Positions 33,064-54,457 of a stretch of DNA of 64,000 nt are shown here, in pieces (position 1 is the first letter of the stretch; the number at the start of each line of letters is the position of its first letter). The position numbers were made by a program, and so were the translations under genes. Under the pieces are notes generated by a model, which saw nothing but the letters and a program-made list of their open reading frames with translations, did no database searches and was not told where the DNA came from. Source of the stretch: an uncultured Bdellovibrionales bacterium (GTDB taxonomy: Bacteria; Bdellovibrionota_C; UBA2361; SZUA-149; CAZDIO01); the NCBI GenBank assembly GCA_964505555.1, contig CAZDIO010000102.1, forward strand, positions 13,355 to 77,354. Direction: 5' to 3'.

Positions 33064-33126
33064 TTGAACACAGAGTTTCACAGGGTTACACAGAGTAAAG
33101 ATTTTAAAATTCAACTCTGTGTTCAA
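33064..33126. repeat. Family A palindromic repeat, copy 1 (right arm truncated)
   Basis: ttgaacacagagtttcacagggttacacagagt + loop aaagattttaaaattca + actctgtgttcaa. It sits between convergent genes. Confidence 0.85.
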
Positions 33127-33171
33127 ATAAGATCGGAATGACCTTAGAGCTACCTTCATATTTCTTATTCA

Positions 33172-33408
33172 TTATATCCACTCTTTCATCAGTCGTTTGA
33201 TCTGACTCTGATACGGCACATTTTGTAGATCACATTTATGCCGAAACGCAGCAAGAAGGGTCTGGGGAATTTTTATACTAATGAGTTTACTCTTTTCTGG
33301 CCGTTCATTCATGAGCCGAAAATCTTCAAGAAAACGTGCTATTTCATCCGGAGAGAGCTTCTTTGAATGATGAAGATACTCTTTAGAAAAAAACTGAACA
33401 CTTTTCAT
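33172..33408 (-). CDS. BrnA/CopG-like small protein (putative antitoxin)
   Basis: 78 aa. The C-terminus ISIKIPQTLLAAFRHKCDLQNVPYQSQIKRLMKEWI resembles the BrnA (COG3514) ribbon-helix-helix antitoxin signature ...PYQTLI... Confidence 0.45.
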   Translation of the reverse strand: MKSVQFFSKEYLHHSKKLSPDEIARFLEDFRLMNERPEKSKLISIKIPQTLLAAFRHKCDLQNVPYQSQIKRLMKEWI

Positions 33409-33414
33409 CTCTTC

Positions 33415-33882
33415 TTACTCTCTACTTAATTCTTGTAGCGCTTCAATATCGGCGAGATCTTGTGGTCGACCCGCTTCTTGTTTCATTCGAATAAGATCTG
33501 ACAATGAAAGAAGGGAGATACTTGTTTGCTGAACCCGAACACGTTTTGTTCTTTGGGTCGAAAGATCATGGGTAATAATGATGTCAACAAGCTCTGCTGG
33601 AGTACGCGGATTTACAAAACTCCATGCAGTAAGGTTTCGATTCTTAATGTACTCCTTTCGAAATTTAAACACCTCTTTGGCGGTGATCGGAAGCTTTGCT
33701 TGAAGGCCGATACTATTTAGCGCCGCTTCCGCCTTTATAAACTGCTCCTCTTCAAAACGAAGAATAATGTCAATGTCGAGCGTTCCTCGTACCGCCCCAT
33801 GAAGAGATACGGCATATCCACCAACAAGTGCATACTTAACGTGGTTCGTATCTAAGGCCTTAATAACGCTTAAAAGAAACAT
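33415..33882 (-). CDS. Minimal nucleotidyltransferase-fold protein (MNT/AbiEii-like), possible TA component
   Basis: YALVGGYAVSLHGAVRGTLDIDIIL carries the GG...G-x-R-x-T-x-D-x-D pattern of pol-beta-type nucleotidyltransferases. Directly upstream of the BrnA-like gene. Confidence 0.45.
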   Translation of the reverse strand: MFLLSVIKALDTNHVKYALVGGYAVSLHGAVRGTLDIDIILRFEEEQFIKAEAALNSIGLQAKLPITAKEVFKFRKEYIKNRNLTAWSFVNPRTPAELVDIIITHDLSTQRTKRVRVQQTSISLLSLSDLIRMKQEAGRPQDLADIEALQELSRE

Positions 33883-33997
33883 GGTATATACTAGTATATA
33901 CCTAGAGCGTTATTAATACAATGCTTATTTTTTTGCTCCGTTATTTAGTTTAAATCCCATAACAAGGTAGCTGTACGGTATTTCATAAGGGGGTTTT

Positions 33998-34882
33998 ATG
34001 TCACGTTTTGCAGCGCTTCGCGCTATTGCTACGTCTGCGGGGGTAGACGGTCCAGGCACCTATCTTCCAAAAGTAATAGAGAAAATTCCGAGAGATCAAT
34101 TACACCTTCCAAATGCAGCGAGCGTCTCAGATCAAAGCGAACCAAATAATACCGAACAAAAAAGCATCATTGAGTGGAATAAAACCCCTCCTCCTGTTGT
34201 CGCTCAAGAAAACGTAAGAGGGGGTATCGAAATCGGGGCTGGTGAGGATCTTCAAAATCCGCAGGTATCTAATAAAGTCGCCACCGCCCAAAAAGCTTTA
34301 GCTCGTGTAAATGAAGTGCAAAAAGAGATCTGGTCAAATGCCCACCTCTGGAGCTCTCTTCCTAACGTTGATGATTTTAAAGAGAGAAGTTCTCAACAGA
34401 TTCAACAATTAACAAATGGCCTTACTAGTCCTGATCTCAGTGGGGTGTTTGCCGATTTAAATCAATCGGTACAGGAGAAGGCAAATAGGATTGAGCTCCG
34501 TCTAAAACAACTTGGAGTTGATCCAGCTGAGGCCGGTCATTGTAAGGAGCTGTTCTTAACAGTCGATCCGTTAAGTGGCTTTGCTAAAAACCTCCCGCAA
34601 GATAGCGCGGGACTAAAACAACAGTTGTCTCTAATGACCCCTGACTCAAGGCGGCTAGCCCTTCAAGCTTGGGTATCTAAAGAAACTGCAAAAGCACTCG
34701 AGCCAGTTGTGGGAAGGGAAAACTCTGCGCGGATTGAAACGATCTTACATCAACTGAGTTTTGAAGTTGATCGTTCGCTCGGACAGGTAGCAGCAACAAT
34801 TGCAGTTCGTCGAGAGTTTCCTGCTCAGACGCCCCATTTCATAACGAATGACGCGGTAAACCAGATGTGGGGAAAAAAGTAG
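33998..34882 (+). CDS. Hypothetical soluble protein, Gln/Ser/Pro-rich, no TM, no recognisable domain
   Basis: 294 aa. Low-complexity N-terminal third. Confidence 0.3.
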   Translation: MSRFAALRAIATSAGVDGPGTYLPKVIEKIPRDQLHLPNAASVSDQSEPNNTEQKSIIEWNKTPPPVVAQENVRGGIEIGAGEDLQNPQVSNKVATAQKALARVNEVQKEIWSNAHLWSSLPNVDDFKERSSQQIQQLTNGLTSPDLSGVFADLNQSVQEKANRIELRLKQLGVDPAEAGHCKELFLTVDPLSGFAKNLPQDSAGLKQQLSLMTPDSRRLALQAWVSKETAKALEPVVGRENSARIETILHQLSFEVDRSLGQVAATIAVRREFPAQTPHFITNDAVNQMWGKK

Positions 34883-35075
34883 CGCGGGAATGAATAGTAG
34901 TAAACCGGACCGTTTTAAGTTTGCAAGAACTTGTCTTTCTGTCGTTGCGATACCTAAAGTGGAACTGCTCTAGTCACATCTTATGAAAAATCAAAATTAC
35001 TTAATTACAGGAGACACATGTAGATAAAAAACAGCCATAACTATTAATGAAAGTTGATGATGTAAAGGTTACCAG

Positions 35076-35095
35076 TTACGAAAATTTTCGTAACC
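35076..35095. promoter_or_regulatory. Perfect 20-bp palindrome gttacgaaaattttcgtaac about 22 bp upstream of the start codon at 35118. Candidate operator.
   Basis: Read directly. It lies between the putative promoter and the RBS (agggggag) of the Cys-rich peptide gene. Confidence 0.4.
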
Positions 35096-52507: not shown

Positions 52508-52528
52508 TCTTAGCGCGCTGTATGGGAG

Positions 52529-53146
52529 GTGAAAATGAATATATCTTATAGAAAAATCTCTCTTCATCATTTAGCACTCTGGAGTTTTGTCTGTTTCATT
52601 CTTTTCTTGAGTACTGGCTGTATTTACCGAAATAAAAATAGCCTTACGGCTCATGAAGCCGTAACTCGGGAAACAAAGATGAAGTCACTCCTTGCTTTTA
52701 GTGTTTCACAGCTTCGAATCGGAGATGAAGTGGCACTTGATCGCGCCTATGCAACGCTTGAGCTTGCACGAGAGTTAGACCCAAACGATGCACGAGTGTT
52801 TGATGGTTTAGGAAGTGTGGAATGGCGTCGCGAAGGGTATAAGTTAGCGGAGTTCTACTTTAAAAAAGCGGTATCTCTTGATCCTAACTATTCTCGTCCG
52901 TATGCACATCTTTCGCTTGTTGCAGAAAGAAATGGTGATTATCAGGCAGCAAAAGAGCTCCTTCTAAAATCTCTTGAACTTAATCCTCTTAATTACCGGG
53001 CAAGAAACAACTACGCCGCCCTTCTTGTTCGTTACGGAAATCAAACAAGTAATGAACAAACGGCGTACTATGAGTTTCTAAAAGTTGCCCGAGGTGCTTC
53101 AAAAGAAGATCCCGTTCTTCAGTATAATCTAGGTCGGTTTGAGTAG
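52529..53146 (+). CDS. TPR-repeat lipoprotein
   Basis: Lipobox LSTGCIY. At least three TPR-like units (AYATLELARELDPNDARVFDGLG...; AEFYFKKAVSLDPNYSRPYAHLS...). Confidence 0.5.
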   Translation: MKMNISYRKISLHHLALWSFVCFILFLSTGCIYRNKNSLTAHEAVTRETKMKSLLAFSVSQLRIGDEVALDRAYATLELARELDPNDARVFDGLGSVEWRREGYKLAEFYFKKAVSLDPNYSRPYAHLSLVAERNGDYQAAKELLLKSLELNPLNYRARNNYAALLVRYGNQTSNEQTAYYEFLKVARGASKEDPVLQYNLGRFE

Positions 53147-53183
53147 GCGTTATCCGTAGTCGCAGGAGGAACCTGATTTTTAA

Positions 53184-53271
53184 TTGAACACAGAGTTTCA
53201 CAGGGTTACACAGAGTAAAGAGAAGAGATTTTAAATTTAACTCTGTGTAACCCTGTGAAACTCTGTGTTCA
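53184..53271. repeat. Family A palindromic repeat, copy 5 (full length)
   Basis: ttgaacacagagtttcacagggttacacagagt + loop aaagagaagagattttaaattt + aactctgtgtaaccctgtgaaactctgtgttca. Confidence 0.9.
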
Positions 53272-53329
53272 TACCAGAAGCTAAATGGACCTACTCTAGC
53301 CTTACAATTCAAAACTTGCTAAGTATTCA

Positions 53330-54337
53330 TTGGAAATCCCTCTTCGGATATTTATGCAAGATCCTCAATCAACGATAAATGTTTCTTCAATAGATTACTC
53401 GCCAACGGTAGGGATAGTAATTATCAATTATAACTGCGCTCCTTATACGCTAGACTGCCTGCGCACAGTAGAGAAGCTTTCCTATACAAATTATTTTGTA
53501 GTGATCATTGATAACAACTCCCCAGATCTCTCCGGCTACTACTTACAACAAGCGCTCAAAGATAAGCGGGTAACCGTCATTATCAACCCTGAAAACTGTG
53601 GCTTCGGGGCAGGAAACAATATCGGTATTCGTCATGCGTTAGAAGGGGAGGCAGAGTATATCTGGCTTTTAAATGCAGATACCTTTGTTCATCCTGAGGC
53701 ACTCTCCCAACTTGTAAAACAAGCAAACGAATATCCTGAGGTTGGAGCGTTTGGAAGTAAGGTTCTGTATGAGGAAGAACCTTTGTCTCCTAAAAAAGAA
53801 GAGGGAAAACCGATAATATGGAGTGCTGGAGCCTCGATAGATTTTTCTAAAGAAGAAGTAAAGATGTTTGGTTCCCATGAAGAAGATCGAGGGCAGCACG
53901 ATCAGCTCCGCGAGTGCGAATACATTCCCGGATGCTCACTTTTCTTTCCTGCAAAGGTGATCTCAGAAGTTGGCTACCTGCCGGAAGAATACTTTATGTA
54001 TTTTGAAGAAACAGAGTGGTGTACGAGGATGAGAAAAAAGCATTTCAAACTGCTCTATGTTCCAGAAAGTGTAGTTTGGCACCGGTTTCAAGATAACAAA
54101 ATGCAAACCCCTTTTGGAGTGTATTATTACAACAGAAATAATCGTTACTTCTGGTTTCGTCAGGGAGATATCTTTAAAAAAATCGCGATGATTGTGCGAA
54201 CACTTTTTAAAGACCTTCCCCGTGCACAGAGAGCGTTTAAAAAAGCCCCCGATGAAGCTTCTCGCGAAATCTTCTCTGCTCACCGAGCTAGCTGTCTTGA
54301 TTTTCTTTTTGGGAGGTTTGGGAAGAGACGGTATTGA
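53330..54337 (+). CDS. Glycosyltransferase family 2
   Basis: GIVIINYNCAPYTLDCLRTVEKLSYTNYFVVIIDNNSPD (GT2 Rossmann with DxD). Confidence 0.8.
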   Translation: MEIPLRIFMQDPQSTINVSSIDYSPTVGIVIINYNCAPYTLDCLRTVEKLSYTNYFVVIIDNNSPDLSGYYLQQALKDKRVTVIINPENCGFGAGNNIGIRHALEGEAEYIWLLNADTFVHPEALSQLVKQANEYPEVGAFGSKVLYEEEPLSPKKEEGKPIIWSAGASIDFSKEEVKMFGSHEEDRGQHDQLRECEYIPGCSLFFPAKVISEVGYLPEEYFMYFEETEWCTRMRKKHFKLLYVPESVVWHRFQDNKMQTPFGVYYYNRNNRYFWFRQGDIFKKIAMIVRTLFKDLPRAQRAFKKAPDEASREIFSAHRASCLDFLFGRFGKRRY

Positions 54338-54379
54338 GTTAAATATTGATATGTTAAATGTTTGCGAGTGTTTTTAGGA

Positions 54380-54457
54380 TGAACACAGAGTTCAACAGAG
54401 GAAAGAAAACAAACCAATAATTTTAACTCTGTGAAACCCTGTGAAACTCTGTGTTCA
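54380..54457. repeat. Family A palindromic repeat, copy 6 (left arm degenerate)
   Basis: tgaacacagagttcaacagagg ... aactctgtgaaaccctgtgaaactctgtgttca. It sits between convergent genes. Confidence 0.85.

Follow-up and report, generated by a model that had tools for sequence, protein, structure and literature searches.

We analysed a 64,000-nt stretch of DNA from an uncultured Bdellovibrionales bacterium (contig CAZDIO010000102.1, positions 13,355 to 77,354 of the forward strand; hereafter the window) and focused on six palindromic intergenic elements, termed family A, all of which lie within 21.4 kb. The results indicate that the family A elements are probably gene-less members, resembling miniature inverted-repeat transposable elements (MITEs), of a very widespread superfamily of palindromic cassettes that, in full form, encode a GxxExxY protein. 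On the best reading of the sequence comparisons, family A would relate to these cassettes as a MITE relates to its parent transposon, with the arms kept and the gene lost. The evidence consists of an arm design shared across phyla, a GxxExxY gene between such arms in independent genomes, and one cassette whose arms are of the family A type. Gene-less forms far outnumbered gene-carrying ones in the sampled loci, and the window copies were classed as the gene-less form because no GxxExxY gene was found in the window.

The 33-nt arm of family A, TTGAACACAGAGTTTCACAGGGTTACACAGAGT, had nine matches in the window at three mismatches or fewer, compared to none in 100 shuffles, and a pattern built from the termini only, GAACACAGAGT-N36-66-ACTCTGTGTTC, returned exactly the six family A elements. 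These results bear out an initial annotation of the window, which had described six palindromic elements with arms of about 33 nt. Eight of the twelve arms were identical over 33 nt. Each arm consists of three 10-nt units on the heptamer CACAGAG or CACAGGG, arranged as ACACAGAG-TTT-CACAGGG-TTA-CACAGAG, and the opposite arm is the reverse complement. This three-unit make-up had been missed in the initial annotation, as had the flipped loops of copies 3 and 4 described below. The elements measure 63-90 nt; where the arms are clearly delimited, in five of the copies, the loop spans 17-24 nt. All six lie between open reading frames (ORFs), in agreement with the intergenic position first assigned to them. 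Family A thereby shows the terminal inverted repeats, small size and absence of coding capacity that are typical of MITEs.

The individual copies differ in completeness and surroundings. Copy 1 (33064-33126) retains a full left arm and a 17-nt loop, with the right arm reduced to its outermost 14 nt, and is flanked by a convergent OsmC-like gene on one side and a CopG/MNT toxin-antitoxin pair on the other. Copy 2 (43781-43869) is located 3' of hemB and 5' of a Gly-zipper gene; its left arm is a variant (…TTTCACAGAGATCCACAGAGT) that is off at four positions and is the form nearest to the arm of the GxxExxY cassette at locus L106. Copies 3 (45391-45479) and 4 (46143-46232) have perfect 33-nt arms and enclose a pair made up of a higB remnant and higA, and copy 4 lies upstream of a sigma-70 family gene. 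These two copies have common outer flanks (GATTA... and ...CCTTCCYTTTTTGC); the flanks GATTA / CCTTCCTTTTTTGC of copy 3 are also present at copy 4. Copy 5 (53184-53272) is situated between the genes for a TPR-protein and a glycosyltransferase, downstream of the type III secretion gene sctV, and copy 6 (54379-54458), whose left arm is degenerate and shortened, is situated between convergent genes.

The relationship among the loops of copies 1, 2 and 5 was confirmed, as were the flanks that copies 3 and 4 have in common, both as initially annotated. The loops of copies 3 (45424-45446) and 4 (46176-46199) are mutually reverse-complementary at 20 of 24 positions, and the flanks outside their arms are in direct orientation. 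The same flip of the loop relative to the flanks was found in 2 of 41 copies of a family in Anaerolineales HSG24 (L003 and L018). Folding, which had been proposed as a check, yielded stable hairpins for the four intact copies, with unbroken stems of about 33 bp, energies of -42 to -64 kcal/mol and z values of -8.7 to -12.3.

No exact copy of the 28-nt arm core was found in 185,579 representative genomes, a set that does not include the source genome, and BLASTN of one family A copy against plasmids gave no match. The termini-only pattern, by comparison, matched 79 genome loci, where about one would be expected by chance, in about eight bacterial phyla, with lineages including Chloroflexota, Bacteroidota, Acidobacteriota, Planctomycetota, Pseudomonadota, Verrucomicrobiota and Parachlamydiales. 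The hosts include Anaerolineales HSG24, with dozens of copies, and other Chloroflexota; Pyrinomonadaceae, Terriglobus and other Acidobacteriota; Saprospiraceae, Bacteroides, Spirosoma and Fibrella; Planctomycetota; Gallionella, Methylotenera, Janthinobacterium and Micavibrio; and Verrucomicrobiota and a Parachlamydiales metagenome-assembled genome (MAG). The design was uniform across the 79 loci, namely two to four CACAGAG-type heptamers, a short loop and the reverse complement, and extra heptamer units were found in the flanks beyond what the search pattern required. A looser consensus of the heptamer is CAC-N-R-A-G, with the variants CACGGAG, CACAAAG and CGCAGAG; the period (8, 9 or 10 nt) differs between lineages and the spacer sequence varies, while the heptamer is kept. 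The arm of the Chloroflexota family (GAACACAGAGTTTCACAGAG) equals the left arm of window copy 2. Patterns for a single arm matched at least 120 loci in metagenome contigs and at least 120 in viral (IMG/VR) contigs. The gap between forward and reverse arrays peaked at 20-60 nt (126 of 202 pairs), with a small tail of a few tens of pairs at 200-500 nt. Many elements almost fill short gaps between co-directional genes; over all loci, 52 elements lay between tandem, 18 between convergent and 10 between divergent genes, and 12 overlapped a crude ORF call. One Bacteroides fragilis primer from the literature happens to fall inside such an element. Clustering of the neighbouring ORFs at the 79 loci produced a single large cluster, of generic two-component signalling proteins, which we rejected as domain noise.

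Full-length relatives have, in place of a short loop, a gene of about 400 nt whose product is a GxxExxY protein of about 125 amino acids (PF13366/TIGR04256), a minimal PD-(D/E)XK nuclease. The lead came from homologous proteins of 133-141 amino acids adjoining elements in Terriglobus (L043) and a Parachlamydiales genome (L058), both of which proved to be GxxExxY proteins (TIGR04256, E 1e-40 to 1e-45). The L058 gene is bounded exactly by two arrays, a forward one that is read through at the N-terminus as TTTEITEHAEK and a reverse one just past the stop codon. Only 60 nt beyond this cassette, a miniature element (5587-5710) carries identical arms around a fragment of the adjacent GxxExxY gene, its final ~55 nt, so that an apparent internal-deletion derivative of the gene-carrying form is seen directly. 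This miniature keeps the 3' end of the gene, and gene-less forms can arise from gene-carrying ones. The arrangement of three heptamers, a GxxExxY gene and three reverse heptamers recurred at L081 and L082 (both reached via two homologues) and at L106; at L047, a forward array stands just upstream of a GxxExxY gene truncated by the end of the locus, and at L043, a complete hairpin starts at the GxxExxY stop codon. The cassette at L106 provides the closest link to the window, as its arms match those of family A in period (10 nt) and in spacers: the reverse complement of its right arm reads TTGAACACAGAGTTTCACAGAGTCCCACAGAG, compared to ATGAACACAGAGTTTCACAGAGATCCACAGAG for the left arm of window copy 2.

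Overall, 10 of 16 GxxExxY genes lay between inverted heptamer arrays, two more abutted a complete hairpin, and one was cut by the end of its locus. We also collected eight genes from plasmids by tblastn with a tail-less GxxExxY query, a sample that is not biased towards arrays, and five of them were enclosed by heptamers in inverted orientation or by an inverted repeat resembling them, with the lineage-specific sequences CACAGAG, CGCGAAG and CACGGAT. CACAGAG arrays were present in Bacteroides finegoldii and Bernardetia, Sphingomonas carried CGCGAAG arrays inside the fabD-fabG gap, and Treponema carried a single CACGGATTCG inverted repeat. In Gemmatirosa, a complete CGCAGAG hairpin follows just after the gene. 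Two of the plasmid genes had direct flanking repeats and one was unclear. A profile search of viral contigs found only two GxxExxY loci, both of them bracketed, by CACRAAG and CGCAGAT arrays. The heptamer thus differs with the GxxExxY lineage, as would be expected for a protein and repeats that work together.

Several of these cassettes were observed between co-directional housekeeping genes: fabD-X-fabG on Sphingomonas parapaucimobilis plasmid NZ_CP155749 (L328), radA-X-FAD protein in B. finegoldii NZ_OY725952 (L326) and ade-X-mannose-1-phosphate guanylyltransferase in Bernardetia NZ_CP147018 (L327), X being the GxxExxY gene with its arrays. Such positions suggest insertion into operons without disrupting them. 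The arrays also leave a mark on predicted proteins. When the N-termini of the 120 closest homologues of the L058 protein were read by eye, 117 had a start of the TTE-x-TE-x-TE type, and this tail is evidently the 9-nt-period array translated in frame. Many GxxExxY proteins in databases were likewise seen to have N-terminal tails (TTE-x-TE-x-TEKE or HRGTEGT) that are translated repeat arrays; gene callers therefore appear to set the start codon upstream of or inside the array.

The GxxExxY family comprises 22,968 clusters at 50% identity, in which the G, E and Y residues and a D...E-x-K triad are invariant. Its AlphaFold2 model is confident (pLDDT 95), and none of the solved structures matches it by sequence. 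A survey of the PD-(D/E)XK superfamily in 2012 listed the function of the family as 'Unknown' and noted multiple horizontal transfers (PMC3424549). In the full-text literature on heptamer arrays, GxxExxY, PF13366 and TIGR04256, with most subscription journals outside its scope, we found no description of the association.

Taken together, these data lead us to propose, tentatively and with less than even confidence, that heptamer-array palindromes and GxxExxY genes form an undescribed class of bacterial mobile element, in which a minimal nuclease of about 125 amino acids would recognise hairpin or cruciform DNA with arrayed copies of a 7-nt word and would thereby drive its own spread and that of abundant gene-less hairpins such as family A, in about eight or more phyla and with some 23,000 protein clusters at 50% identity. 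That the GxxExxY nuclease mobilises elements of the family A type we regard as about half as probable as the family's membership of the superfamily, its role in mobility being purely what we infer. The nuclease would recognise the heptamer arrays, probably as a hairpin or cruciform, and would make a break through which the arms, alone or together with the gene, could be copied into further intergenic sites, either through break-induced gene conversion in a homing-like manner or through excision and insertion. Identical arms may at the same time serve as homology for swapping or flipping loops. A palindrome acting at the DNA level, with its arms as recombination homology, fits the data because identical arms surround unrelated loops, loops are found flipped, and hairpin stability has no strand bias (see below). 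The window copies themselves are most likely passengers; if transcribed, they would form RNA hairpins of 33 bp, whose influence on mRNA ends, if any, would be incidental.

Several results weigh against this interpretation. A search with hidden Markov models in all reading frames detected no GxxExxY gene in the window, where no ORF matches PF13366, and the exact family A arm occurred in none of the 324 collected loci; since the gene is absent from the window and the exact arm was found nowhere else, the partner gene in this genome is unproven. The flanks of the six copies, which were inspected for target-site duplications as had been advised, contained no visible duplication and no common direct repeat. 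Among the array loci, solo direct arrays with no partner within 150 nt made up about two thirds in metagenomes and almost 90% in viral contigs, where GxxExxY genes are rare and arrays common. Pairs in the order reverse-then-forward also occur (21, compared to 55 forward-then-reverse, in an unbiased count), and this count led us to drop the statement that arrays are always forward-then-reverse. The picture of a hairpin plus a gene is therefore incomplete. In the unbiased plasmid sample, three of the eight genes lacked inverted heptamer arrays. Moreover, the search patterns behind most supporting loci themselves include the heptamer, which in part accounts for how uniform the superfamily appears. 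Finally, we know of no GxxExxY protein with known activity.

Solo CACAGAG arrays were frequent upstream of assorted phage genes in IMG/VR contigs (L203-L322). The ORFs downstream of these solo viral arrays encode unrelated phage proteins, with no common family among them. Some forward and reverse viral arrays 100-1200 nt apart, which are candidate partners, enclose small ORFs, for example Cas2/VapD-like and zinc-ribbon ORFs.

A syntenic relative of the window (L080), retrieved through an SctV homologue with 56% identity, allowed the same intergenic regions to be compared. The order of the genes for a sigma factor, sctJ, sctV, the TPR-protein, the glycosyltransferase, an Rce1-like protease and phosphoglycerate dehydrogenase is conserved. 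At the site of window copy 5, L080 carries a different palindrome of the GTCATTGCGAG type; at the position of window copy 4, 5' of the sigma gene, it carries an inverted CTCTGTG/CGCAGAG pair; and after the dehydrogenase gene it carries a heptamer palindrome of the CCACAAAG type. Because the intergenic regions of L080 hold other palindrome families, the comparison argues for turnover of elements at syntenic sites and against a conserved site-specific function. The palindrome family with the words …GCGAAGCGAAGCAATCTCG / GTCATTGCGAG… was also noted in the window at 56165-56225, and at 12663-12770 and 18601-18710 of L080, in other intergenic regions; to our knowledge, a word of this family is common in metagenomes.

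These observations bear on the possibility that the elements are RNA hairpins selected by the host as terminators, 3'-end stabilisers or RNase III sites and multiplied by their usefulness, without any mobility enzyme, which we consider improbable. The predicted hairpins are indeed very stable, most copies lie just 3' of stop codons, and in copies 3 and 4 a T-run stands about 6 nt behind the stem, so that these two copies could terminate rightward transcription. However, the stem comes after the T-run in copies 2, 5 and 6, and a terminator scan, although uninformative for stems this long, called none of the six copies. Stability also showed no preference for a strand: among 64 distinct relatives between co-directional genes, the comparison of sense with antisense gave 31 vs 31, and G-U pairs numbered 112 in sense vs 128 in antisense. 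The order of the T-runs, the terminator scan and this lack of bias give no support to the bidirectional terminators or mRNA stabilisers suggested in the initial annotation. In addition, unrelated palindromes occupy the same intergenic regions of L080, and a host-selected RNA hairpin would leave unexplained why one heptamer recurs across several phyla and why a nuclease gene lies between the arms. In the window, the genes flanking the eight heptamer-array elements (six of family A and two of family B, described below) were convergent in four cases, tandem in three and divergent in one, and no match to Rfam at gathering thresholds was found over the whole window, a permissive E-value producing only generic microRNA-precursor hairpins well below threshold.

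Classical repetitive extragenic palindromic (REP) elements, or REPINs, that is, palindromic doublets mobilised in trans by a single-copy REP-associated tyrosine transposase (RAYT), offer another explanation, to which we assign little probability. Family A agrees with the general description of REPs in being intergenic, mostly between co-directional or convergent genes, and in forming hairpin doublets of about 90 nt with near-identical arms (PMC3733652). A REP is a palindrome of 20-40 nt that bears at one end an unpaired tag, GTAG or CGTC (PMC3733652), whereas neither tag is present at or next to the ends of the six copies, and the 33-nt arms of heptamer units do not resemble a GC-rich imperfect palindrome of 20-40 nt. 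No transposase, RAYT, integrase or other nuclease gene was detected in the window (56 of 59 candidate ORFs of at least 80 amino acids plus three shorter toxin-antitoxin ORFs), no Y1 transposase was present among the scanned ORFs, and the gene that lies between such arms elsewhere is a PD-(D/E)XK GxxExxY gene rather than a RAYT gene. The initial annotation of a REP/MITE-like dispersed palindromic family holds in kind, as the superfamily is dispersed across several phyla, but neither the REP tag nor the RAYT was found.

The heptamer arrays might also be binding sites in duplex DNA for a conserved protein (a regulator, nucleoid or partition-type protein), comparable to the heptad arrays bound by ribbon-helix-helix proteins, with the palindromy incidental. 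We consider this quite unlikely but keep it open, as direct arrays often stand alone, with many of these solo arrays located in viral contigs, 5' of genes. The conserved heptamer with variable spacers and spacing (8-10 nt) and the RepA/ParAB module of the window would also suit such a protein. Against it, spacings of 8, 9 and 10 nt place successive sites on different faces of the helix, tight inverted pairs with short loops dominate in genomes, and no candidate protein co-occurs with the arrays, the only large neighbour cluster being the generic two-component proteins.

Cassette boundaries of the integron type, in which the elements would be attC-like sites without an integrase and the Gly-zipper gene and higBA would be cassettes, are very unlikely. 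Copies 2, 3 and 4 do delimit two accessory units, one of which is a toxin-antitoxin pair, and the arms begin with ...GAAC and end with GTTC..., which recalls the AAC/GTT of attC R boxes. The stems are nevertheless perfect over 33 bp, with no unpaired spacer or extrahelical bases; the copies have a common arm sequence, while attC sites have a common structure and not a common sequence; and the remaining copies are single, between housekeeping genes, in a window with no integrase. Purely local duplication within the 21-kb stretch is scarcely credible, since the six insertion contexts are unrelated (each copy occupies its own intergenic region, the flanks show no relationship, and some of the loops are unrelated too) and close relatives of the arm occur in many genomes, even though the exact arm was found in no other scanned sequence and all six copies are clustered. 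Membership of the GxxExxY cassette superfamily remains our preferred explanation for family A.

Two further elements of the heptamer superfamily, termed family B, were identified at 29229-29311 (element 1, with arms CCACAGAGACACAGAGCCGCAGAG) and 63093-63193 (element 2), both with an 8-nt period, and are best explained as gene-less miniature members as well, judging from their arms. Element 1 is part of a nest of palindromes (29195-29432) downstream of a menaquinone decarboxylase gene: it is nested in an outer inverted repeat (29195-29214 / 29316-29335) and is followed by an unrelated palindrome with 36-nt arms at 29349-29432. Positions 1-28000, which hold a polysaccharide-biosynthesis cluster, were without any heptamer-array element, the eight such elements being confined to the stretch from 29 to 64 kb.

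Between copies 3 and 4, a higB-like remnant (approximately 45547-45708) and a higA gene for a helix-turn-helix antitoxin (45733-46026) lie on the forward strand. The initial annotation had one copy contributing the apparent GTG start of higB. This GTG, at 45472, does fall inside the right arm of copy 3, but the start is most likely an artefact of ORF extension, and the HigB-like part begins about 75 nt downstream of the copy. The ORF (45472-45708) has no Pfam match and reads like a decayed toxin gene that lacks about 40 middle residues, its HigB-like part running from about 45547 (VVIRSYKNIG...) to ...VEIVDYH; both this part and the apparent internal deletion were assigned by inspection. The adjacent higA is intact.

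Other genes of the window include those for flagellin, sctJ/Q/V, a futalosine-pathway decarboxylase, icd, hemB/hemD and parAB. Besides one identical NCBI protein, SctV has no relative above 57% identity, and its named relatives come from Bdellovibrionota, Oligoflexia and 'Deltaproteobacteria' MAGs. A gene for replication initiator protein A (PF10134) adjoins parA and parB (36658-40814). Because of this adjacency, the window may derive from a replicon akin to a plasmid or chromid, even though it carries genes for flagellin and type III secretion as well as icd and hemB/hemD.

Of the features of bacterial genomes that lack an explanation, small intergenic palindromes rank with the commonest, and few of their families have been traced to a source or an enzyme. 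Family A can be linked by sequence to a gene-carrying parent, whose product belongs to a very large protein family. If the nuclease acts on heptamer arrays, this would provide a function for the GxxExxY family and a route of mobility without DDE or HUH chemistry, and it would explain near-identical repeat words in unrelated phyla as well as broken metagenome assemblies. It would also provide a rule for annotation, in that N-terminal TTE-x-TE-x-TE or HRGHR tails on small proteins would be read as translated arrays and not as protein sequence.

Compared with known systems, the elements share with the REPs and REPINs of Pseudomonas and Enterobacteria (PMC3116915, PMC3733652) the form of short intergenic palindromic doublets in many near-identical copies, the preference for co-directional and convergent gene pairs, the non-autonomous nature and what is presumed to be one enzyme gene with repeats on either side of it. 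They differ in having no GTAG/CGTC tag, in arms that are heptamer arrays of 25-40 nt and in a PD-(D/E)XK (GxxExxY) protein of about 125 amino acids in place of an HUH/Y1 transposase; REPs, moreover, are typically lineage-specific, whereas the heptamer elements span several phyla with one common heptamer. Integron attC sites are likewise imperfect-to-perfect palindromes 3' of accessory genes, including toxin-antitoxin pairs, but they are defined by R/L boxes and extrahelical bases and act with an integrase, neither of which is present here.

Free-standing and PD-(D/E)XK homing endonuclease genes resemble the cassettes in that a small selfish nuclease gene sits between or inside housekeeping operons, as in fabD-GxxExxY-fabG and radA-GxxExxY here; unlike the cassettes, they are not bracketed by repeat arrays and leave no abundant gene-less hairpins. 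The intervening sequences of 23S rRNA in Leptospira and Coxiella, which hold a small ORF between long inverted repeats, also combine a small gene with a long stem, form paralogous families in many phyla and are suspected to be mobile, but their ORF encodes a four-helix bundle and not a GxxExxY protein, and they insert in rRNA helices. Bacterial MITEs, such as Correia/NEMIS of Neisseria and Nezha of cyanobacteria, have in common with the present elements the terminal inverted repeats, the short non-coding core and the origin by internal deletion from a gene-carrying element, as seen here in L058. The present elements differ from them in showing no visible target-site duplication, in the repetitive make-up of each inverted repeat, in a parent without a DDE transposase, and in loops down to 5-25 nt, which turn the whole element into one hairpin. 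As regards the parent expected of a MITE, longer relatives with the same arms encode a PD-(D/E)XK protein, to which a transposing role can be ascribed only by inference. Miniature palindromic elements derived from a gene-carrying parent are a kind already known, and it is the parent and the class of enzyme that appear to be new.

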